The notes under the pieces were generated by a model. It saw only the letters and a list, made by a program, of their open reading frames with translations, did not search any database and had not been told where the DNA came from. Source: an uncultured Clostridia bacterium (lineage in GTDB: Bacteria > Bacillota > Clostridia > TANB77 > CAG-508). From it: 64,000 nucleotides of DNA. Of the stretch, positions 13,350-58,485 are shown in pieces (positions within the stretch are counted from its first letter, which is position 1; every line of letters begins with the position of its first letter). The stretch lies in assembly GCA_948735595.1 (NCBI GenBank), contig CAPXSA010000027.1, positions 7,106 through 71,105 on the forward strand. Reading direction: 5' to 3'. The position numbers and the translations under genes are program-made.

Positions 13350-13397
13350 GGGTTGGAAAACAGAACCGTCCCCTTTTCCAAAAGGAGAAAATAATTT

Positions 13398-28176: not shown

Positions 28177-28250
28177 TGTCAGATTAGGGACATACGTTCA
28201 TCCAACAAAAACTTCGTTTTCGTCAGATGAACATACGTCCCTAAACTAAC
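28177..28250. repeat. REP-like element, long variant
   Basis: tgtcagattagggacatacgttcatc ... gatgaacatacgtccctaaactaaca. It shares the tgtcag, GGGAC/GTCCC and aaactaac blocks with the other copies and lies between convergent genes. Confidence 0.55.
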
Positions 28251-28251
28251 A

Positions 28252-42193: not shown

Positions 42194-42330
42194 GCTTTAT
42201 CTCACTCCCTTCACATCTTTATTAGGGTATTCTATACCTGAATTTTTCTATCTCTTTTCTACGGTTTACAATCTCACATACGTTCGATTGCATTAGTTAG
42301 CTGTAACTCGCCTTGCTTCGTACAGCTAAC

Positions 42331-42729
42331 TTAATCCTTTTTTGCTGTATCAGCCTTTTTGGTTGCTGGCTTTGCAGATGCTGTTTTTGTTTCAGCTTTA
42401 TCTTCTGCTTTTGCGCTAGCTGTTTTAATATTTGTAATTTCTACTTTTGTATATGGTTGTCTATGTCCTTGTGTTCTTCTATAATTCTTTTTAGCCTTAT
42501 ATTTGTACACTAAGATTTTTTTACCTTTACCATGAGAAACTACTTTTCCTTCTACTTTAACATCTTTTATATAAGGAGTTCCTACTTCTACTTTTTTGTC
42601 ATCAGATACTAAAACAACATTATCAAATGTTACTTTTTTACCTTCTTCTACATCTAATTTTTCGAAGAATACAACATCTCCTTTTGTTACTTTGTATTGT
42701 CTTCCACAGCTTTCAATAATTGCGTACAT
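42331..42729 (-). CDS. rplU: 50S ribosomal protein L21 with a Lys/Ala/Thr-rich C-terminal extension
   Basis: [14 protein letters not shown] start with an AGGAGGTG SD 9 nt upstream. The tail [28 protein letters not shown] extends beyond the canonical ~103 aa. Confidence 0.9.
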
Positions 42730-47260: not shown

Positions 47261-47363
47261 ATTTCCTCCACTTAAGATTCTCACTTCTTCCTGTAATAGT
47301 ATATTCCACTTTTTTCCTTTTTTCAATTCCTTTATTAAAGTTCATTGTGAATTTTTGGACACA

Positions 47364-47420
47364 AAAATGTCGTACTAGGGACAGATGTCAGACAAACTAA
47401 CGTCCCCTGTACGACATTTT
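47364..47420. repeat. REP-like core embedded in the loop of a terminator-like palindrome
   Basis: AAAATGTCGTAC-tagggacagatgtcagacaaactaacgtcccct-GTACGACATTTT. Confidence 0.65.
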
Positions 47421-47422
47421 TA

Positions 47423-49549
47423 TTATTTCTCTTTAAATGTTACTACTTCTGAGTATGGTCCATATGTTTTTACACCATTAATATATTTATATGCTCTAAC
47501 TCTTGCAGTATAATCATAATTTTTTCCTGTAATTCCTGAAATCTCTGTACTACTATTATTAGCATACATTGGCACATGACCAATTCCCGGTACTGTTAAA
47601 TCAATTTCATATCCTGCTGCACCGCTTACTCTATTCCATTTTAAAGTTACAGTCGTTTTGTTCATAGTTGACTTTAATCCGGTTACTTTGCTAATAGATG
47701 TATTGTTTTCTGTTTTGTTATAGCTTTCTGTTCTAAAGCTTGTTACACTAGAATAATTGCTATAAGCTGTTTCATATTTTCCATTTACATATTGATTTTT
47801 ATATGCTCTTACTCTTACCTTATAATTAGTAGAATAGTCCAACATGTTACTGGTTAAAATCATATGGTTTTCTGTCACATAATCTACATGTTTGTATGCT
47901 CCACTATTTTTAGAAATTTCCACTTCATAACCTGTAGCACCTTCTACTTCCCACCATACTAAATATGCTTCATTTCTGTTTCTAATTTCAGCTGTTAGAT
48001 GTGTTGGAGTTGCAGGTTTTACAAGTGTTTCTTTTGAAGTTGTAAATCCTTTAATTGTTGCGCTTTCACTGGTATACTCTTTTCCATTTACCTTTTTATA
48101 TGCTTCAATTTTTACTTTGTAATAAGTATTTGCTTTTAAGTTGCTAAAATTGTAGCTTCTATTTGATGTTGAACCTTTATATTGGTAGCTTCCATTGCCT
48201 TGAGCAAAATAAATATTATATCCATTTGCACCACTTACAGCTGTCCAACTAATTTTAGCACTATTTTTAGTTAAGTTATCTACATAAATAGTTCTAACAT
48301 TTCCAACAGTAATTTTGTCTTCTTGTGTATTAAATCTATAGCTATATGATTCATTACCGTATTGTTTTTTTCCATTTACCCATTTATAGGCAACTATTTT
48401 TATTCTATAAGAACTGTCATCATCTAAGTTTGATAGAGCAACTGTTCTATTGCTTGTATCTTTAATTGTTTCATATCTTCCACTATTTTTAGATAGTAAG
48501 ACTTCATAGCCATCTGCATTATTTGCTTTTGACCAAGATACTCTAGCTGTTGTAGTACCAATGTCATACACTTCTACTTCATCAATATCTCCAACTGTTA
48601 TTTTTTCAGTTTTAGTTGTGAAAGAAGCATAAGTTGATTCATCTCCATATACTTTTTCATTTTTATCCCATTTATAAGCAACTATTTTTACTCTATAATA
48701 GCTGTCTGAAGTCAAGTTAGATAAATACACTCTGTTCCCTGTTTTTGAAGTAATATTTTGATAGCTTCCGTAGTTTTTAGATAATAAAACATCATAGCCA
48801 TCTGCATTATTTACTTCTTTCCATGTTACAGTTGCTGTTGTTTTTTCCACATCATAAACTGTTACATTTGTTACTTTATCTAGTTTTATTGGGTCATTAT
48901 TCTCATTGTTATTATCATCTTTATTAAAGTCAATAGTTATATATTGCGCTACTGATTTTTCACCATAACTTACATTATCTGTATTTAAATTTTTACAAGC
49001 CCTAACACTAAAACCATATGTCATACCATTTGAGAAACCTTGTAGTATTGCATTTGTTGTGGTTACTTCCCCGATATTCATATTGCCAAGTCCCGGAACA
49101 TCTACGAATACTTGATATTTATCTGCATTATTCACTTTTGACCAATTTAACGTGACATAACCATTTGCTTGTGTTACAGTTAAATTTTGTACTTGCTCTA
49201 AATTTTTTGGCAAAGTTGTAGTAAAGTTAATTTCATTTGAAAATGCAATTTCTGTTTTTGTATTATCATAGGCTGCTACTTTTAAACGATAAGTAGTATT
49301 TTCTGAAAAATTAATCAAAGTTGCTTCATTTGAATTTACAGAACCAATTTTAGTTCCATTTACATATACATTATATCCAGCACTATTAGAAACAGAAGAC
49401 CAAGTAAGTTTCATTTGGCTACCATTTAAGCTAGCTTTTAAATCACTAATATTTCCTACTAAGCTTACTGCTTGCATTGCTGTACTCATCATTAGTAATA
49501 GTAAAATTGTTAGAGTCATAATTGATACAATTTGTTTTTTATATCTCAT
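47423..49549 (-). CDS. Secreted protein built of about seven fibronectin type III repeats
   Basis: Signal peptide, followed by repeated units of the form W..V..A.GY.V......Y.......T...L...T.Y..KV.AY. Confidence 0.75.
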   Translation of the reverse strand: MRYKKQIVSIMTLTILLLLMMSTAMQAVSLVGNISDLKASLNGSQMKLTWSSVSNSAGYNVYVNGTKIGSVNSNEATLINFSENTTYRLKVAAYDNTKTEIAFSNEINFTTTLPKNLEQVQNLTVTQANGYVTLNWSKVNNADKYQVFVDVPGLGNMNIGEVTTTNAILQGFSNGMTYGFSVRACKNLNTDNVSYGEKSVAQYITIDFNKDDNNNENNDPIKLDKVTNVTVYDVEKTTATVTWKEVNNADGYDVLLSKNYGSYQNITSKTGNRVYLSNLTSDSYYRVKIVAYKWDKNEKVYGDESTYASFTTKTEKITVGDIDEVEVYDIGTTTARVSWSKANNADGYEVLLSKNSGRYETIKDTSNRTVALSNLDDDSSYRIKIVAYKWVNGKKQYGNESYSYRFNTQEDKITVGNVRTIYVDNLTKNSAKISWTAVSGANGYNIYFAQGNGSYQYKGSTSNRSYNFSNLKANTYYKVKIEAYKKVNGKEYTSESATIKGFTTSKETLVKPATPTHLTAEIRNRNEAYLVWWEVEGATGYEVEISKNSGAYKHVDYVTENHMILTSNMLDYSTNYKVRVRAYKNQYVNGKYETAYSNYSSVTSFRTESYNKTENNTSISKVTGLKSTMNKTTVTLKWNRVSGAAGYEIDLTVPGIGHVPMYANNSSTEISGITGKNYDYTARVRAYKYINGVKTYGPYSEVVTFKEK

Positions 49550-49857: not shown

Positions 49858-52800
49858 TTAAACCTCCTTAATTTGAGCCTTTCCTTCTCCCACCAATTCT
49901 TCAAATTGCTTTAAGATTTCTGGTGTCATATAAATTCCCCCTGCTTTATCTACCTTTTCTCCATTGACAATTTGTAACTGAATATTATTTCTATCTCCTT
50001 GGAAAAAGTAAATTGCTCCTTTCAATTTATTTCGCATTTCTTCATCTAATTCTGTAATATCAATTTCAAATACTTTTGCTTTTGTTTCCGTAAAAGGAGT
50101 TATTGTTCTTGCTACAATCTTAGGTTCTTCATCTTCACGTATACTTAATCTTCCTTCTACAATAACAATATTTTCCTCAATTAAACTACTGCTGCAAGCT
50201 TGATAACAACTATCAAATACAATAAATTCTGTTGGTCCATATAAATCTTCAATGGTAACAAATGCCATAAGTTTATTGTTCTTCGTATACTTTTTCTTCA
50301 CACTAGTAATAATTCCTGCATAAGTTACATTTTGTCCATCTTTGAATTCTGTTTGATGTTCTTCATAGGTTTGCTCTCTTTTGAATTCTCCTTGTTCTTC
50401 TAGGCTCATTTCATTTTCGCTGCTGATTTGTCGTAATTGGAAGGTATTGATATTGGTTTTTGCTTCAATTTGTTCTCTCATATCTTCCAATGGATGTCCT
50501 GAAATATATAACCCTAGCATTTCCTTTTCCATAGATAACAAATCTTTTGGTTCATATTCAGGAAGCGTTGTGTAAGTATATTTCATTTCTTCTACTTCTT
50601 TGCTACCACCTAAATCAAACATAGATACTTGACCTTCAAAACTCTTCTTTCCACTATCTGAAATCATATCTATAATTTTCTCAAAAGATGCAATAAGCGT
50701 TTTTCTTGTTTGCCCTAAATTATCAAAACTTCCTGCTTTGATTAAACTTTCCACACATTTTTTGTTGACACCTAAATCTTTAATCCTTTCACAAAAATCA
50801 CTAAAGTCTTTGTAATCCCCATTTCTTTCTCGCTCTGCCACAATGTTATCTACTGCATCAGTTCCTACATTTTTAATACTTCCCATACCAAAACGAATTT
50901 GATTTTTGTCTACTGTAAATTTAGTATCACTTTTATTGATATCTGGTTTTAAAATCTCAATCGCTAGTCTTTTACATTCTTCTACATATCCTGGAATTTT
51001 ATCTTGATTTCCCAAAAAGCTATTTAACATTGCTGCCATAAATTCTGCTGGATAATATGCTTTTAAATATGCTGTTCTGTAAGATACTACTGCATAAGCT
51101 GCTGCATGAGACTTATTAAAAGCATATTTTGCAAATTCTGCCATTTCATCAAAAATCTTATCTGCTGATTGCTCATCAATACCATTTCTAACACAACCTG
51201 GAACAATAATATTTCCTTGTTCATCTACTTGTCCATGAATAAAGATTTCTCTTTCTTTTGCCATAACTTCTAGCTTTTTCTTTCCCATAGCTCTTCTTAC
51301 TAAGTCTGCTCTACCTAGTGAATATCCTGCTAAATCCCTTACTATTTGCATAACTTGCTCTTGATAAACCATACAACCATAAGTAACTTCTAGGATTGGC
51401 TTTAAAGATGGATGTGTGTATACTGCATGTTCTGGGTCCTTTTTATTGGCAATATATCTTGGAATTTGGTCCATTGGACCTGGACGATACAAAGATACAC
51501 CAGCGATAATATCTTCTAAGCAGTCTGGTTTTAATTCCTTCATAAAGTTTGTCATACCTTGACTTTCAAATTGGAATATGCCTACAGAATCTCCATTTTG
51601 CCACAGTTTATATACTTTAGGATCATTCATCTTTTCATCAAATTGTACATCAATTCCTTGATTTTTCTTCACTAAATCAATGGTATCTTGAATTACTGTT
51701 AAAGTACGTAATCCTAAGAAGTCCATTTTCAAAAGTCCTAATTCTTCTAGTGTGGTCATAATATATTGTGTAGAGACAATACCATCTCTAGCATAGAGTG
51801 GTACATAATTAACTACTGGCTCTCTTGCAATAATCACACCACAAGCATGAGTTGAAGCCTGTCTTGGCATTCCTTCTAATGCCATAGCAATATCTAATAA
51901 CTTTTTCATTGATTCATCTGATTCATATAAATCTTTTAATTCTCTATTTTTCTCCAATGCTTTATCAATGGTAATATGTAATTCATTTGGTATCATCTTT
52001 GCTAACTTATCCGCTTCTGCATATGGCAAATCCAGTACCCTTGCCACATCGCGAATAACCATTCTAGCCGACATAGTTCCAAATGTAATAATCTGAGAAA
52101 CATGGTCTTTTCCATATTTTTTCTCTACATATTCAATTACTTTATCTCTTTTTTCATAGCAAAAGTCAACATCAAAATCGGGCATACTAATTCTTTCAGG
52201 ATTTAAGAAACGCTCAAAAAGAAGTCCATATCCAATCGGGTCAATATCTGTAATGCCAATAGCATAAGCCACAATAGAACCTGCACCAGACCCACGCCCT
52301 GGTCCTACTGGTATGTCATGTGTTTTCGCATAATGAATATAGTCCCACACGATTAAGAAGTAATCTACATACCCCATTTTATTAATAACACCCAATTCGA
52401 ACTTCATTCTCTCTTGCATTTCCTCTGTGATGTTATCCCCATAACGTTCCTTCATACCATCCATTGTTAATTTTTCTAAGTAATCATAGTGAGTTTTAAA
52501 TTCTGCTGGTACATCATAGTTCGGTAAAATCGTATGTCCAAATTCAAATTCCACATTACACTTTTCTGCAATTTTTACTGTATTCTCAATTGCATCTGGT
52601 ACATTGCTAAAAAACTCACTCATTTCTTCTGGTGATTTTACATAGAGTTCATCTGTATCAAACTTCATTCTATCTTCATCTGTCATACGCTTTCCTGTTT
52701 GAATACAGAGTAGTACTTCATGGTTATAGGCATCTTCTCTTTTTAAATAATGGGCATCATTAGTTGCTACTAGTGGAATATCTAGTTCTCTTGAAAGTTG

Positions 52801-53370
52801 AATTAATTTTTGGTTAGCAAGCACCTGTTCATTAATACCATTATGCTGAATTTCTAGGTAATAATCCTCTCCAAAAATAGACTTATGCCACAAAGCCACT
52901 TCTTTTGCCTTTTCCATATCATTTGCCAAAATTGCTTGATTGACTTCACCTGCTAAACAAGCACTACAACATACTAAACCTTCATGATATTGCTCTAAAG
53001 CTTCATGGTCAATACGTGGCTTATAGTAAAAACCTTCTGTATAACCTAAAGACACTAATTTCGCTAGATTTTTATATCCTTCATTGTTTTTAGCCAATAA
53101 AATTAAATGGCTATATCTAGCATCTAAATTAGGGTCTTTATCTGTTCTAGAACGTGGTGCTACATAAACTTCGCAACCAATAATAGGCTTTACTCCATTT
53201 GCTTTACACGCTTTATAAAAATCAATAGCGCCAAACATAGCACCATGGTCTGTAATCGCCATAGCATCCATTCCTAATTCTTTTGCTCTCACTGGTAAGT
53301 CTTTTATTCTATTTGCTCCATCTAGTAAGCTAAACTCACTATGGATGTGCAAGTGTACAAAATTTGCCAT
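49858..53370 (-). CDS. dnaE: DNA polymerase III alpha subunit (DnaE type)
   Basis: PHP domain N-terminus FVHLHIHSEFSLLDG. 1170 aa. Confidence 0.95.
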   Translation of the reverse strand: MANFVHLHIHSEFSLLDGANRIKDLPVRAKELGMDAMAITDHGAMFGAIDFYKACKANGVKPIIGCEVYVAPRSRTDKDPNLDARYSHLILLAKNNEGYKNLAKLVSLGYTEGFYYKPRIDHEALEQYHEGLVCCSACLAGEVNQAILANDMEKAKEVALWHKSIFGEDYYLEIQHNGINEQVLANQKLIQLSRELDIPLVATNDAHYLKREDAYNHEVLLCIQTGKRMTDEDRMKFDTDELYVKSPEEMSEFFSNVPDAIENTVKIAEKCNVEFEFGHTILPNYDVPAEFKTHYDYLEKLTMDGMKERYGDNITEEMQERMKFELGVINKMGYVDYFLIVWDYIHYAKTHDIPVGPGRGSGAGSIVAYAIGITDIDPIGYGLLFERFLNPERISMPDFDVDFCYEKRDKVIEYVEKKYGKDHVSQIITFGTMSARMVIRDVARVLDLPYAEADKLAKMIPNELHITIDKALEKNRELKDLYESDESMKKLLDIAMALEGMPRQASTHACGVIIAREPVVNYVPLYARDGIVSTQYIMTTLEELGLLKMDFLGLRTLTVIQDTIDLVKKNQGIDVQFDEKMNDPKVYKLWQNGDSVGIFQFESQGMTNFMKELKPDCLEDIIAGVSLYRPGPMDQIPRYIANKKDPEHAVYTHPSLKPILEVTYGCMVYQEQVMQIVRDLAGYSLGRADLVRRAMGKKKLEVMAKEREIFIHGQVDEQGNIIVPGCVRNGIDEQSADKIFDEMAEFAKYAFNKSHAAAYAVVSYRTAYLKAYYPAEFMAAMLNSFLGNQDKIPGYVEECKRLAIEILKPDINKSDTKFTVDKNQIRFGMGSIKNVGTDAVDNIVAERERNGDYKDFSDFCERIKDLGVNKKCVESLIKAGSFDNLGQTRKTLIASFEKIIDMISDSGKKSFEGQVSMFDLGGSKEVEEMKYTYTTLPEYEPKDLLSMEKEMLGLYISGHPLEDMREQIEAKTNINTFQLRQISSENEMSLEEQGEFKREQTYEEHQTEFKDGQNVTYAGIITSVKKKYTKNNKLMAFVTIEDLYGPTEFIVFDSCYQACSSSLIEENIVIVEGRLSIREDEEPKIVARTITPFTETKAKVFEIDITELDEEMRNKLKGAIYFFQGDRNNIQLQIVNGEKVDKAGGIYMTPEILKQFEELVGEGKAQIKEV

Positions 53371-53386: not shown

Positions 53387-53435
53387 TGTCAGTTTGGGGA
53401 CGTTAGTTTAACTGACATATGTCCCTAAACTGACA
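53387..53435. repeat. REP element immediately 3' of the RAYT gene
   Basis: tgtcagtttggggacgttagtttaactgacatatgtccctaaactgaca. It is the reverse complement of the 54713-54760 copy with two mismatches, and lies 16 nt from the RAYT stop. Confidence 0.8.
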
Positions 53436-53451
53436 TTTTAAGTTTCTTTTC

Positions 53452-54240
53452 CTATTTATCTTCTACTTCTTTTTTCATTGCTCTATAAATTGTTCTTTCA
53501 TTCATTCCTAAAATTCTTGCTAATTGTTTTCTTTCTATTCCTTCTAACCTTGCTATTTGTGCAATTAACTTGTCTCTTTTATCCACTTTTTCGTTTTGAA
53601 TAGAAACTATATTTTCAATATTGAGCAATTGCTTTATCTTTTTAATTGCTTGTTCATCAGACAACTTCACATTTTCAAATTCAAAATCATCCTTTTCATA
53701 ACCTTTTACTTTCCCATATTCTATATGAAAGATTTCAAAATTCCTTTTACTCATTTCAGCCATTTTCAATACTTTCTCGGTCTCAATTAGTCGAGAAAAT
53801 TGGCTATATTCGTGATAACTACTCCAATAGTATTTTGAATATTGGCAAATTCCTGACTTTTCTGGATTGAAATGTATATATCGAATAATATTCAGTAAAT
53901 ATGGCAGATTTTCCACATACTTACTTTTAAATCTATTATAAAACACATGTCCTATCCTATTATACTTCTTATTAAAATACAAAGCATAACTAATGGCCAA
54001 TGACTGAATAACCTTGGATAGCTTATCTTCTTTATCCATTATCACTAAGTGAACATGATTATGCATTAGTACGTAAGCATATAAGTCATAATAATATTTT
54101 TCCTTCGTTTCTTTTATACATTTTAAAAATTTTCTTCTATCAGTATTATCATAAAATATTTCCTGTTGATTGATACCACGAAGAATAACATGATAAACTC
54201 CTGTATAAGATTTTTGATTTTCTCTACAACTTCGGGGCAT
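53452..54240 (-). mobile_element. REP-associated tyrosine transposase (RAYT; IS200-like Y1/HUH transposase, COG1943 type) with a C-terminal DnaA-C-like HTH
   Basis: YHVILRG, HUH motif LMHNHVHLVI, GHVFYNRFKS, and catalytic Tyr context RYIHFNPEKSGI. The C-terminal HTH is QLARILGMNERTIYRAMKK. No IS ends or tnpB are present. Confidence 0.8.
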
Positions 54241-54352
54241 AGTATTCCTACCTTTTCTTTCAATATTTGCCCCCTATTGATTTTTTATTACTATATCATT
54301 TTTTCTACTATATTTCCATATAAAAACTAATTTTATTACTTTTAACAGCCTC

Positions 54353-54592
54353 TTAGCCCTTCATTTTAATTAATGTTTCTATTGGTTCACTTTGTCTTTG
54401 TGGAATTCTTAAAATCTCAAATTTTGAAATCTTATCTCCAAACCTAATCTCCACAATATCACCTATCTTAACCTCATAACTTGGTTTAACTATTTTTCCA
54501 TTAACAGAAATTCTACCGCCATCTGCAGCTTCATTTGCAACAGTCCTTCTCTTAATGACTGTTGACATTTTTAAAAATTTATCTATTCTCAT
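54353..54592 (-). CDS. yabO: S4-domain RNA-binding protein (YabO/RqcP, Hsp15-like)
   Basis: MRIDKFLKMSTVIKRRTVANEAADGGRISVNGK S4 motif. 79 aa. Confidence 0.8.
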   Translation of the reverse strand: MRIDKFLKMSTVIKRRTVANEAADGGRISVNGKIVKPSYEVKIGDIVEIRFGDKISKFEILRIPQRQSEPIETLIKMKG

Positions 54593-54712
54593 CTTTTTTC
54601 ACTTCCATTCTCTATTAGAGTTTTATAACTCTTCTACACTACTTTTCTTGCTTAGTATCTCTAATTCATTATTAGCCATTTCTATTCCTTATTTCAATAT
54701 TTTCTGAAAAGT

Positions 54713-54760
54713 GTCAGTTAAGGGACAGATGTCAGTTAAACTAACGTCCCCAAACTGACA
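54713..54760. repeat. REP element overlapping the addA 3' end
   Basis: tgtcagttaagggacagatgtcagttaaactaacgtccccaaactgaca. It is in inverted orientation relative to the 53387 copy. Confidence 0.8.
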
Positions 54761-57700
54761 CATTGCCACTCACAATTTGCTAAACAAATCTTTGCGCTTG
54801 TAACTTTCTTTCCCAATGCTTGTTCTAATGCTTTTCGATAAATGTCAATTTGTATTTGATACTTATCTGCTACTTGTTTTTCTTTTCCTTTTGGCACATA
54901 GTCTGTTTTGAAATCTACTAAATGCACTTGTTCTTGCTCATCTATATAGTATAAATCGATCATCCCTTGTACTAAAATATTTTTTTCAGAGCCTGCTTCC
55001 TTTGCTTCTTTAAAAATTTCCTTAGCTGGTAGATTGATATAAAATGGTTGCTCTTTGTATATTTGTTTTGCTTTTTTTAGTTTTTGGAATAGTTCTGATT
55101 TTGTATAACTATATACTAAATTAGCATCTATCGCTTCTGCTTCTATTGATGTAATGATTTCTTTTTGTACTAATTCTTGAACTAAATTTTGAATATCTTG
55201 TAATTCATATTCTTTTCTTTCATCTAATTTTTGAATACATAAGTGGACTAAAGTTCCTTTTTGTGCAGGGGTTAGTTTAGTTACTTCCTCACTTCCTAAT
55301 GCTTTTACTTGTATGTACTGCAATTGATTTAATGTCTGCATTTCTTCTAAATTTTCAGTTTTTTCTTTTGTACTACTTCCATCTTCTTCCCAATTTGCTT
55401 GGCTTTCTAAAGAAGGAAGCTGATTTACTTGTTCTTGTTTTAACTTAGTTACAGAAGTTTTGGTTGGAAGTTTTGTATCTACTTCATAAGCATATTTCCA
55501 TTCCAAGCTTTGTTTTAATTTAGAAAGTTCGGTGTCTTTTTGCTTTTCTACTTCTTCTTGAATTACCTTTGTAATTTCTATTTCTTCTTTCTCTTGTGTC
55601 ACTTGCAATTCCTTGATTAAATCTTGTTTTGCAAAAGTTTGTAAAGTTATGATATCACTTAATTCTAATTGTTTTCCTTTTAAAGATATCGTTTTTCCTT
55701 GATAAAATAGATATACATATTCTAACCAATCTAAATAGGAACTACATTTTTTCATCAGCTTATAATCTATCTTAAACGCTTCATCCTCATACATAGCTAA
55801 GTTTTTTTCTTTTTCTTGCAAAGCTTTTTGAAAATCCTTGCTTCTTCCTGTGATAATTAGTTTTTCTTTTGCTCTTGTTAAAGCAACATACAAAATTCTT
55901 TCTTCTTCTGAAAGGGTTTCTTGTTTTATTTTTAGGCTAATTGCTTTTTTTGCAGTAGTTGTATATTTTAGCTTTTTAGCAGTATCAATTAAAGTTGGTC
56001 CTAGTCCTAAATCTTGATGCATTAAAATAACTTCATTTAAATCTCTTAAATTAAATTTCTTATGTGTATGGCTTAGAAATACCACTGGAAATTCTAACCC
56101 TTTACTTTTGTGTATACTCATAATACGAACAACATTAGCACTTTCTCCAATTAATTTCGCTGAACTCAAGTCTCCATTTTGTTTTTTTAGCTTTTCAATA
56201 AATTGGATAAAATGAAATAATCCTTTAAAACTTGCTGTTTCATATTGTTTTGCTTTCTCAAACAAAGTCTTTAAATTAGCTTGTCTCATTTCTCCATTTG
56301 GTAATAGTCCTACATACTGGTAATATCCGGTATCTAAATAGATTTGCCAAATTAGTTCATCTAAAGGCAAATATTCTGATTGTGCTCTCCATTTTTCTAA
56401 TTTTTCTAAAATTGCTTCTATCTTGCTTTTTAGTGGTTCTTCACAAGATATTCTTGTTTTGATAAGGGCTTCATAAAAATTACAATTCCTATCTGTTAAT
56501 CGAATCGTGATTAATTCATTATCTGTCATTTGCCCAATACTAGACCTTAACACTACTACGAGTGGAATATCTTGCATTGGATTGTTAATTAATTTTAAAA
56601 TGGATAAAATGGTTTCAATTTCTACACTTTCTAAATAGGAAGTAGAACTATCACTAAATACTGGTAAGTCATAATCTGATAATTCTTTTTCATAAATAGG
56701 TGCTAAAGTGCTTGTTGCTCTTAATAAAATGACAATATCTTTGGGTTCAATTTGTCTATATCCTTTTTTTCTGTCATATACTTGATAATCACTTTGTAGC
56801 AAGCCTTTAATACGTTTTGCTACAAATCTTGCTTCTAATACATCATCTTCTATTCTATCAGTATTTTCTTCTTCCTCTTCTTCACCAATGATAGCAGTAA
56901 TAGTGTCATCTTCTTTCATATCAATGACATTTAATTCTGTTATTCCTGCATAAGAAGTTTCTTCTTCTGGTTCTGGATAATTTGCTCCATAGTTTAAATA
57001 TTCATTCTCGTTATAGGTAATGTCTCCTAGTTTTTCACTCATAATGGCTTCAAATACCAAATTTGTAATGTCTAAAATATTATTCCTACTTCTAAAGTTA
57101 CGGAATAATTGAATTTTCAAATCATCCTTTTCTTGCTTGTCTTCTTTTGTTTGATAGCTTGCATATTTTTGCAGAAACAATTCTGGTCTTGCTTGCCTAA
57201 ATTTATAAATACTTTGTTTGACATCTCCTACCATAAAGATGTTATTTCCTTTAGAAATACTGGTTAAAATAGCCTCTTGTACCAAGTTGCTATCTTGATA
57301 CTCGTCAATGGCTATTTCTTCAAATCTTTCTTCATATTTTTTGCTGACTTGTGTTTTGTTCCCTTCCTCATCTAGTAACAATTTTAATGCTAAATGCTCA
57401 ATATCATTAAAATCTATACAGTTCTTTTCCCTCTTCTTCTCTTTGAAATTTTCACTAAATTCTAAAATGAGCTTTGCTAACTTCTGCAAAATAGGGTAAA
57501 GAGTTGCAAAGTCCTCTACAATTTCCTCTGAAGTATTTTGAATTAATTTTGATACCTTTTCCTTGATGTCTTTTTTCACTCTATCTCTAATTCCTTTTGC
57601 TTCTTCTTTGATGTCTAAAGTCACCTTTTTGTCTACTGGCCATTTTCCAAAACTAATCTGGTGGACTTTTTGGTATACTTCATTCCACGAACTTTTTGCT

Positions 57701-58485
57701 TCTATCATTTCTTCTAGCTGTAAAATATCTTCGCTAATCACTTGATAAAACTTACTACATTCAGGAAATTTCTCTAATTCCCTTTGCACCTTTTTTAATT
57801 TTAGGAGACTTCCTTCTAACTCTTCTTGTATTTCCTCTAAAATCACCTTACCTAAAACAGTTTGTCCAAAGTCCAAAGAAGTATCCACCTGAAATTGCTC
57901 TACTTTTTCTTGTAGCCACTTTTCGGGGAAAGGACTACTTTGAATAAAGCGATAAATGGATAAAATTAACTCTTGTAATGGCTCATCTCCACGATATCCT
58001 GTATAAGTTTCTAGTAATTCTAAAAAATCGCTATCTTGCTCTATATATTTTTGCTCTAATAAATCTTCTAACACTTCTTGTTTTAATAAATCAATTTCCG
58101 TTGTATCTGCAATTCTAAAATTGCTTGGTAAGTCAATTTCATAAAAATGATTACGAATTACATCTAAACAGAAAGAATGTATAGTACAAATACTTGCTTT
58201 GTTTAACAAGGTAATTTGTCTTTGTAAATGTTCATTTGATGGGTCTTGTTCTAATTTTTGATAAATGGCTTCTAAAATTCTTTCTCTCATTTCTGCTGCT
58301 GCGGCATTTGTAAAAGTTACCACTAATATTTTATCAATGTCAATTTTGTCATCAAGAATTTTATGAATCATTCTTTCTACAAGCACAGCAGTTTTACCAC
58401 TACCAGCGGCAGCAGCTACTAAAATATTAGAACCTTTACTTTCAATTGCTTGCAATTGTTCTGTCGTCCATTTTACGTCACCCAT
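54736..58485 (-). CDS. addA: ATP-dependent helicase/nuclease subunit A (AddA)
   Basis: UvrD-type N-terminus AAAGSGKTAVLVER and a C-terminal PD-(D/E)XK nuclease motif GMIDLYY...VDFKTDY. 1249 aa. Confidence 0.9.
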   Translation of the reverse strand: MGDVKWTTEQLQAIESKGSNILVAAAAGSGKTAVLVERMIHKILDDKIDIDKILVVTFTNAAAAEMRERILEAIYQKLEQDPSNEHLQRQITLLNKASICTIHSFCLDVIRNHFYEIDLPSNFRIADTTEIDLLKQEVLEDLLEQKYIEQDSDFLELLETYTGYRGDEPLQELILSIYRFIQSSPFPEKWLQEKVEQFQVDTSLDFGQTVLGKVILEEIQEELEGSLLKLKKVQRELEKFPECSKFYQVISEDILQLEEMIEAKSSWNEVYQKVHQISFGKWPVDKKVTLDIKEEAKGIRDRVKKDIKEKVSKLIQNTSEEIVEDFATLYPILQKLAKLILEFSENFKEKKREKNCIDFNDIEHLALKLLLDEEGNKTQVSKKYEERFEEIAIDEYQDSNLVQEAILTSISKGNNIFMVGDVKQSIYKFRQARPELFLQKYASYQTKEDKQEKDDLKIQLFRNFRSRNNILDITNLVFEAIMSEKLGDITYNENEYLNYGANYPEPEEETSYAGITELNVIDMKEDDTITAIIGEEEEEENTDRIEDDVLEARFVAKRIKGLLQSDYQVYDRKKGYRQIEPKDIVILLRATSTLAPIYEKELSDYDLPVFSDSSTSYLESVEIETILSILKLINNPMQDIPLVVVLRSSIGQMTDNELITIRLTDRNCNFYEALIKTRISCEEPLKSKIEAILEKLEKWRAQSEYLPLDELIWQIYLDTGYYQYVGLLPNGEMRQANLKTLFEKAKQYETASFKGLFHFIQFIEKLKKQNGDLSSAKLIGESANVVRIMSIHKSKGLEFPVVFLSHTHKKFNLRDLNEVILMHQDLGLGPTLIDTAKKLKYTTTAKKAISLKIKQETLSEEERILYVALTRAKEKLIITGRSKDFQKALQEKEKNLAMYEDEAFKIDYKLMKKCSSYLDWLEYVYLFYQGKTISLKGKQLELSDIITLQTFAKQDLIKELQVTQEKEEIEITKVIQEEVEKQKDTELSKLKQSLEWKYAYEVDTKLPTKTSVTKLKQEQVNQLPSLESQANWEEDGSSTKEKTENLEEMQTLNQLQYIQVKALGSEEVTKLTPAQKGTLVHLCIQKLDERKEYELQDIQNLVQELVQKEIITSIEAEAIDANLVYSYTKSELFQKLKKAKQIYKEQPFYINLPAKEIFKEAKEAGSEKNILVQGMIDLYYIDEQEQVHLVDFKTDYVPKGKEKQVADKYQIQIDIYRKALEQALGKKVTSAKICLANCEWQCVSLGTLV

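Follow-up and report, generated by a model that had tools for sequence, protein, structure and literature searches.

A transposase gene bracketed by inverted hairpin elements

We analyzed a 64,000-nucleotide stretch of DNA (the window) from an uncultured Clostridia bacterium, in which a gene for a protein resembling RAYTs, the tyrosine transposases linked to repetitive extragenic palindromes (REPs), is set between inverted copies of a small hairpin element. The window corresponds to positions 7106 to 71105 of contig C27 in a draft genome of 1.447 Mb (29 contigs, 30.6% G+C), which we label G000. The gene, RAYT-1, lies on the minus strand at 53452 to 54240 and encodes a 262-amino-acid enzyme of the Y1/HUH type with a C-terminal helix-turn-helix (HTH). 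Its reading frame, including the HNHVHLV and RYIHFNP motifs, is present as reported in the first-pass annotation of this DNA. On one side of RAYT-1 is dnaE (minus strand, 49858 to 53370); on the other are a gene for a 79-amino-acid S4-domain protein (minus strand, 54353 to 54592; Pfam S4, E value of 2.8e-13) and beyond it, on the far side from dnaE, addA (minus strand, 54736 to 58485).

Two elements enclose RAYT-1 together with the S4-domain gene. The left bracket is a 49-nt compound element, TGTCAGTTTGGGGACGTTAGTTTAACTGACATATGTCCCTAAACTGACA, at 53387 to 53435, between the RAYT-1 stop codon and the ribosome-binding site of dnaE. It lies 16 nt past the stop codon and folds as DNA to -13.9 kcal/mol (z score of -6.6). 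The right bracket, an inverted 49-nt element, overlaps the 3' end of addA. The two arms (53387 to 53439 and 54708 to 54760) are 94% complementary over 53 nt, confirming the earlier description of an element 16 nt 3' of the gene with a near-identical inverted partner, which spans 54712 to 54760.

Further copies are dispersed through the window, where the pattern TGTCAGTT-N15-AACTGACA occurs 3 times versus 0.01 expected by chance. A solo copy with a compensated outer stem, TGTCGTAC / GTACGACA, is found at about 47363 to 47421 (fold z score of -6.2), and a 75-nt long-hairpin variant with loop type GGGACGTAT at 28177 to 28251 (z score of -4.7), where it adjoins the minus-strand gene on its right at that gene's stop codon. 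A degenerate 31-nt hairpin copy with loop GAGACATTAG is on the plus strand at 2343 to 2373. These three had been listed in the first-pass annotation and are real and intergenic; overlooked there was a sixth copy, the solo hairpin TTGGAAAA-GGGGACGGTTCTG-TTTTCCAA on the minus strand at 13353 to 13381, which has the Firmicutes-wide loop consensus described below and follows a stop codon, ahead of the next ribosome-binding site. When window elements were folded as single-stranded DNA, four of five (53387 to 53435, 54712 to 54760, 28177 to 28251, and 47360 to 47425) each beat 200 of 200 shuffled sequences, with z scores of -4 to -6.6. The degenerate copy (2343 to 2374) folds less well (z score of -2.7), with 2 of 200 shuffles equal to it.

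RAYT-1 is closer to E. coli TnpA-REP than to IS200-type TnpA

RAYT-1 carries the motifs HNHVH, RYIHFNP, and NPEKSG and matches Pfam Y1_Tnp with an E value of 5.6e-12, while matches for the C-terminal HTH are weak (HTH_23, E value of 5.7e-4). Among the NCBIfam models, REP_Tyr_transpos gave 55.5 bits (cutoff of 80) and transpos_IS200 gave 19.3 bits (cutoff of 55). In an alignment of 30 homologous sequences, H62, H64, Y121, N125, and W139 are invariant, and the family consensus is RYIHxNPxKAG, with NPVKAG frequent. The class-2 tyrosine signature Y---NP (Quentin et al. 2018) reads YIHFNP in RAYT-1, followed by EKSG. HTH_23 was detected in 12 of the 30 homologues and HTH_28 in 3.

A search of the Protein Data Bank (PDB) with the single RAYT-1 sequence returned no match, and a profile built from the 30-sequence alignment returned one significant match, E. 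coli TnpA-REP (4ER8; E value of 4.6e-5). The AlphaFold2 model of RAYT-1 has a predicted local distance difference test score of 86.5 and a helical C-terminal domain. The top Foldseek match of this model is also TnpA-REP (4er8_A; E value of 8e-7; TM-score of 0.68 on the target), followed at ranks 2 to 25 by the TnpA proteins of IS608, ISDra2, and IS200. By sequence as well as by fold, RAYT-1 is nearer to E. coli TnpA-REP than to the TnpA of IS200/IS608. The RAYT-like assignment made from the sequence at first reading is upheld, and hidden Markov model scores, PDB profile search, and fold all set the protein apart from ordinary IS200 TnpA.

The hairpin forms a genome-wide, mostly intergenic family

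The first-pass annotation had proposed a genome-wide count of the motif, and a family is present, far over controls. We counted 24 exact occurrences of the 15-nt unit TGTCAG[GT]TNNGGGAC and 61 with one mismatch, versus 0 to 2 in shuffled genomes. A looser pattern that allows other stems finds 105 units at 53 loci, and shuffled or reversed controls give 6 to 10. The commonest 16-mers of the genome come from this hairpin family, with a maximum of 15 copies. The hairpins matched no family in an Rfam search, and a literature search on the core sequences returned unrelated primers only.

Most copies are intergenic. Outside long open reading frames (ORFs) are 48 of the 53 loci, and 47 of 63 occurrences of GGGACGT are in intergenic DNA, which by ORF proxy makes up 12% of the genome. 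Within ORFs, the locus at C4 26517 seems an artifact of the ORF caller, which extended a gene start upstream, and the other four are single units at chance level. In correction of the first-pass annotation, the right bracket runs into addA, taking in its final 8 codons and its stop codon. Of 49 loci placed in gene context, 37 are between codirectional genes, with some excess of convergent pairs and a deficit of divergent ones. Many copies begin flush at a stop codon and finish just ahead of the next ribosome-binding site.

The family is built from a hairpin unit of about 31 nt, comprising a stem, a loop starting (T)GGGGACGTT, and a return stem, and units start with TGTC(A/G). Loop types differ in number: GTTAGTTT and GTTCCTTTTT are each found in 17 copies, GTAT/GTAC in about 20, GTTCT in 3, and GGTTCT in 2. 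Within the GTTAGTTT class, we found three sets of arms: TGTCAGTT / AACTGACA / AACTGACA; TGTCGCAC / GTGCGACA / GTGCGACA; and TGTCGTAC / - / GTACGACA. The arms are altered at 3 to 4 positions on both sides, with G-T intermediates seen, and such paired changes are direct covariation for the hairpin. The compensatory stems were read straight from the sequences, as a MAFFT alignment of the compound elements set the stems off by one gap.

Units are combined into four compound forms: a hairpin plus an inverted half-unit (49 to 52 nt), direct doublets with a 35-nt period, long hairpins of 75 nt, and inverted composites of 129 nt. The last are found at four G000 loci and fold to -49.6 kcal/mol (z score of -12.9). 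With two inverted units and a short spacer forming one long hairpin, they fit the description of REPINs.

A second paralogue and two syntenic loci

A tblastn search of G000 identified one further RAYT copy, RAYT-2, 66% identical and located at 50769 to 51539 of contig C14, between a GH15-like gene and radA. The inverted units around RAYT-2 are of the GTTCCTTTTT loop type, whereas those around RAYT-1 are of the GTTAGTTT type, and both paralogues are bracketed in G000 and in relatives. Beside RAYT-2, we also observed that the 5' end of radA (C14, about 51620 to 51790) is split: the zinc-finger N terminus reads into an in-frame CGG (ACA CGG AAG TGG TAT GGA TAA), and the gene goes on in the +1 frame (C GGA AGT ...).

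Among 25 genomes of the genus searched (compared genomes carry G labels), 16 have a RAYT match, G000 included, with the genes at two syntenic loci. The order dnaE-RAYT-addA is found in G000, G008, G022, and G003 (the copy in G010 is truncated), and the order GH15-RAYT-radA in G000, G002, G009, G010, G011, G012, G013, G016, and G020. RAYTs at the radA-side locus, which is occupied in at least 9 species, are 41 to 67% identical to the G000 RAYTs, versus about 62 to 99% for neighboring genes. Between G000 and G008, the ratio of nonsynonymous to synonymous divergence (dN/dS) is 0.10 for RAYT-1, 0.14 for RAYT-2, and 0.007 for dnaE, and dN is 0.014 to 0.052 for the RAYTs versus 0.002 for dnaE. The combination of synteny, divergence above that of the neighbors, and low dN/dS indicates that the RAYT genes are functional, fast evolving, and inherited in place. 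Such inheritance in place with fast evolution has been reported of RAYTs (PMC2817692) and not of insertion sequences (ISs).

In other species, the RAYT at the radA locus is again enclosed by inverted arrays, which share the architecture but differ in their stems (TGTCGCG, TGGTAAT, and GGGGYCA). The bracket there is TGTCGCGTTGGGGACGTTTCTTAGCGCGACA in G009, TGGTAATTGGGGACGTTTCCTAATTACCA in G013, and of the GGGGYCAGT...GTCCCC type in G012. Across the Firmicutes, adjacency to radA was confined to the four closest loci from metagenome-assembled genomes (MAGs).

Repeat abundance tracks the gene, and copies turn over between species

Units of the G000 type number 55 to 95 in six genomes of the genus, each with a RAYT at least 59% identical, versus 0 to 3 in genomes that lack a RAYT. 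The stem-independent core GGGGACGTT is present in 24 to 55 copies in nine genus genomes, all nine with a full-length RAYT, and in 0 to 4 copies, equal to the reversed-control level, in nine genus genomes with no RAYT match. G002 has 64 units but with another loop. Repeat abundance tracks RAYT presence.

For turnover, we compared 47 repeat-bearing sites of G008, the closest relative, with G000, whose RAYT-1 proteins are 97% identical. Clean filled and empty sites with conserved flanks were found at L111 1019, L116 1048, and L120 6830, and at some sites exactly one 35-nt or 18-nt unit had been gained or lost. The right bracket in G008 consists of the 31-nt hairpin only, an 18-nt indel relative to G000. 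Elsewhere, a 129-nt composite was reduced to a short palindrome or a single hairpin, and several orthologous spacers carry different subfamilies in the two genomes.

Most loci of homologues across the Firmicutes share a loop and vary the stem

We collected 80 loci from named Firmicutes genomes with homologues 33 to 48% identical, most of which have an inverted repeat between the flanks. The repeat arms take the form [stem]-GGGGACG(G)TTC(T)-[stem'], with a stem that differs in nearly every taxon and a GGGGACAGG variant in Bacilli. Of the correctly oriented GGGAC motifs in the flanks (n = 184), 37% are within a perfect stem of at least 6 bp, versus 1.8% of shuffled ones, and 50 of 66 loci have a stem-enclosed GGGAC hairpin on at least one flank.

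In some of these genomes the repeat is amplified: the 12-mer GGGGACGGTTCT is counted 81 times in Desulforamulus putei, 97 times in Halobacillus locisalis, 63 times in a Syntrophomonadaceae MAG, and 4 to 5 times each in two other MAGs, while the reversed control is 0 in every genome. Many of the 97 copies in H. locisalis are within about 40 kb of the RAYT homologue (NODE_2 of the L046 genome, about 762 to 805 kb), a clustering that suggests local spread.

The dnaE-addA cassette and the AddA tail

The content of the dnaE-addA interval varies among relatives. In G006 and G020, addA is directly next to dnaE, with neither a RAYT nor an S4-domain gene between them, and in G003 a RAYT alone is present, bracketed by doublets. 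The 79-amino-acid S4-domain gene, in the relatives checked, occurs only in genomes with the G000-type RAYT-1 cassette, and it was beside none of the RAYT homologues at the 80 Firmicutes loci. What had been named yabO at first is this lineage-specific gene and not a conserved neighbor. In G022 (L003, 2642 to 3013), an additional gene of 123 amino acids, 45% identical to G000 C4 57867 to 58205, separates the S4-domain gene from the right-hand element.

The right element supplies the end of addA. In G000, the gene's final 8 codons (CVSLGTLV) and its stop codon (54736 to 54760) are part of the element, and the AddA C terminus of G000, G008, and G022, ...CEWQCVSLGTLV*, has its tail and stop read from the element. 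In G003, the tail and stop (...LLLSVLGR*) come from a different frame of that genome's own element. G006 (...KDEYYLEIL*) and G020 (...KDNFSLLA*) have no element at the 3' end of addA, and their tails are unrelated.

A second intergenic repeat family

A second, unrelated intergenic repeat family of about 65 to 70 nt, TTAAGTTAGCTGT..CGAAGCGAAGCGAGTTACAGATAACTTATGCAATCGAGC..GATTGTAAAC.TTA, has about 20 copies. One is in the window at 42264 to 42331; others in G000 include C7 41907 to 41979, C25 23104 to 23172, C24 44827 to 44894, and C14 27897 to 28020. The repeat is often tandem and often begins inside a TAA stop codon, and three copies are nested in a GGGGAC hairpin loop, at GTTA|AGTT.

Relationship to known transposase classes

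The best class fit for this system is the TIRYT class, equivalent to TnpA-Y1 subclass 2.1 and RAYT group 1, as opposed to a classical GTAG-type REP or a new kind of system. Subclass 2.1 corresponds to RAYT group 1 of Bertels (291 of 292 sequences) and probably to the TIRYTs of Di Nocera (Quentin et al. 2018, PMC6006769). Assigned by the published descriptions of the class, RAYT-1 is probably a member of subclass 2.1. Proteins of this class are long, and their C-terminal HTH extension is described as Bac_DnaA_C, HTH_23, or HTH_28. Subclass 2.1.2 has an HTH of the HTH_23/HTH_28 type (PMC6006769), and the same HTH types on the homologues, together with the features of the protein, match that description. 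Group 1 also occurs in Clostridia, with flanking 16-mers in about 12 genomic copies (Bertels et al. 2017, PMC5581495). Like the TIRYTs, RAYT-1 is a long Y1 protein (262 amino acids) with a C-terminal HTH of this type, encoded by a low-copy, chromosomal gene with inverted flanking repeats that contain a GGGG[AT][CG]A[CG]-like motif: GGGGACAC in the second unit of the RAYT-2 doublets, and GGGACAGA and GGGGACGT (7 of 8 positions) around RAYT-1. The flanking repeat is moderately amplified in both cases (top 16-mer in 15 copies here versus about 12 in group 1). The system differs in its repeat, here and at 50 of 66 Firmicutes loci a hairpin whose GGGGACG(G)TTC loop is conserved and whose stem covaries freely, whereas Quentin et al. 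report finding no REP-like structures beside subclass 2.1 genes, and in having REPIN-like composites and 60 to 100 copies in some genomes.

With the classical REPtron (E. coli TnpA-REP/YafM, 4ER8; PMC2817692; Ton-Hoang 2012), it shares the HUH/Y1 core, a gene bracketed by inverted palindromic units, and intergenic units present as singlets, doublets, and inverted doublets. It also shares a single-copy gene that is inherited vertically and evolves faster than its neighbors, with repeat-protein coevolution. The differences are the extra HTH domain, the NPEKSG found here in place of the NP(L/V)(R/K)xG motif (Nunvar 2010, PMC2817692), and copy numbers in the tens here and the hundreds there. The initial REPtron-like reading is largely right, holding for the bracketed gene and the dispersed family, but this is not a classical pair of RAYT and GTAG-tagged REP. 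Compared with TnpA of IS200/IS605 elements (IS608, ISDra2), the catalytic fold is the same, and so, presumably, is a single-strand hairpin substrate. However, those proteins have about 130 to 150 amino acids and no HTH, and their multiple near-identical mobile copies, same-strand left- and right-end hairpins, and frequent tnpB were not seen here.

For subclass 2.1 genes, neither automatic nor manual searches gave REP-like sequences nearby (Quentin et al. 2018, PMC6006769). Our comparisons suggest that such sequences do exist near these genes, at least in Firmicutes. The hairpin idea is not wholly new, since a terminal inverted repeat (TIR) motif, GGGG[AT][CG]A[CG], and some self-complementary TIRs have been described (Di Nocera, De Gregorio & Rocco 2013, PMC3733652). 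The earlier suggestion of a possibly new REP sequence class accordingly survives in part: the flanking-repeat motif was published in 2013 and the RAYT class is known in Clostridia (PMC3733652, PMC6006769, PMC5581495), while what this analysis adds is the definition of a loop-conserved, stem-free unit across Firmicutes, the two protein-loop pairs, the two syntenic loci, and the filled and empty sites. We lean slightly toward a broader proposal, in which the GGGGACG(G)TTC hairpin with its free stem and conserved loop would serve the largest RAYT subclass (2.1, group 1, or TIRYT) as its general DNA substrate throughout Firmicutes, and the proteins would read the loop sequence, not a 5' tag, and drive REP-like families to about 100 copies in Bacilli and Clostridia.

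A probable fixed transposase and its cognate hairpins

In our judgment, RAYT-1 is quite probably a Y1/HUH transposase from the HTH-bearing part of the TnpA-REP lineage that has been domesticated and fixed in the chromosome, with a cognate family of nonautonomous hairpin elements. Going by what is established for this family and by the structures that Foldseek matched, the protein would most likely act as IS608 and E. coli TnpA-REP do: it would bind the hairpin on single-stranded DNA, recognize the loop motif, and cut and rejoin the strand via Tyr121, mobilizing elements in trans. The stem sequence would be free provided that it pairs (TGTCAGTT/AACTGACA, TGTCGCAC/GTGCGACA, or TGTCGTAC/GTACGACA), with the loop carrying GGGGACGTT, and this freedom would explain the three stem versions under one loop in G000. 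Copies would spread to short spacers between genes and to the very 3' ends of genes, while the RAYT gene would stay put and be inherited vertically, perhaps with some benefit to the host. Each paralogue would serve its own loop variant, RAYT-1 the GTTAGTTT loop and RAYT-2 the GTTCCTTTTT loop. A possible role of the HTH, raised by Quentin et al. (PMC6006769), would be to contribute binding of duplex or hairpin DNA or targeting of replication forks.

Several observations weigh against this reading. At the level of the protein, RAYT-1 falls under the curated NCBIfam RAYT cutoff (55.5 versus 80 bits), and RAYT-2 has NC, not NP, after the tyrosine (YIHFNC). The units lack the classical 5' GTAG tag at the foot of the hairpin, their conserved motif GGGGAC being in the loop; the asymmetric core showed no strand preference relative to transcription (23 versus 18); and the filled and empty pairs of G008 and G000 showed no target-site duplication or clear target motif. 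The co-occurrence, for which we give no statistic, is drawn from related genomes that are not independent samples. It also has exceptions: four RAYT-bearing genomes of the genus are poor in the exact core, and in G003, G016, and G021 a RAYT is accompanied by few copies. No repeat family was found in G016 or G021 with the patterns used, nor a flanking inverted repeat at the G016 locus. Conversely, G029, of the same order but another family, has 29 copies of GGGGACGTT (control, 10) and no RAYT match; either the repeats outlived the transposase or the gene is unassembled.

The gene could instead belong to an ordinary autonomous IS of the IS200/IS605 type, selfish, recently acquired, and horizontally moving, with the hairpins as derivatives in the manner of miniature inverted-repeat transposable elements. 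The Pfam Y1_Tnp match fits this, as does the truncated RAYT-1 copy of G010, and the absence of the whole bracketed segment between addA and dnaE in G006 and G020 implies that the cassette was gained or lost as a block. However, there are only two copies, 66% identical to each other, both at loci syntenic across species with identities down to 41%. Their ends are inverted repeats, not same-strand subterminal hairpins, with no tnpB, and the 262-amino-acid protein has an HTH and reaches 19 bits with an IS200 model whose cutoff is 55. The lack of tnpB and of IS-like behavior, claimed in the first-pass annotation, is upheld, and we regard an ordinary IS as very unlikely.

It is also unlikely, if somewhat easier to entertain, that the hairpins are functional elements of the host (mRNA stabilizers, processing or terminator-like sites, or HTH binding sites) spread by recombination or selection, with the Y1 protein a mere neighbor or a binding regulator. 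REPs in E. coli have secondary host roles of such kinds (PMC3733652), the protein here has an HTH, and the elements either fill operon spacers from a stop codon to the following ribosome-binding site or provide the stop codon themselves, with different subfamilies in orthologous spacers of different species. Against host function as their origin, the elements occur in both orientations relative to transcription, and a U-run is missing from most of them. Between species with flanks about 79 to 97% identical, a site may have a copy in one and none in the other, their abundance tracks the presence of the Y1 gene, and the catalytic HUH and Tyr residues are kept under purifying selection. Virtually no weight is left for chance resemblance, in which a transposase remnant would merely have a few AT-rich palindromes of unrelated origin nearby: its sole support is the low G+C content (30.6%), which favors small palindromes. 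Counts far above the shuffled and reversed controls refute it, and the G-rich core is conserved over phylum-level distances.

Implications

REP/RAYT is the standard case of a fixed, vertically inherited transposase that maintains a population of tiny hairpin elements. To our knowledge, work on it has been done almost wholly in Proteobacteria, and we know of no substrate tested for the HTH-bearing subclass. A domesticated transposase with cognate hairpins at this locus and in relatives would bring the REP/RAYT way of life to gut Clostridia for that subclass, as a clear Gram-positive example of a class that is known but has been little studied. The repeats rewrite the 3' ends of genes, as in the AddA tail, and fill operon spacers, and they thus matter for annotating such MAGs. 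The system also offers a concrete candidate substrate, the loop motif plus any pairing stem, along with naturally occurring stem swaps and, within a single genome, two protein-loop pairs.

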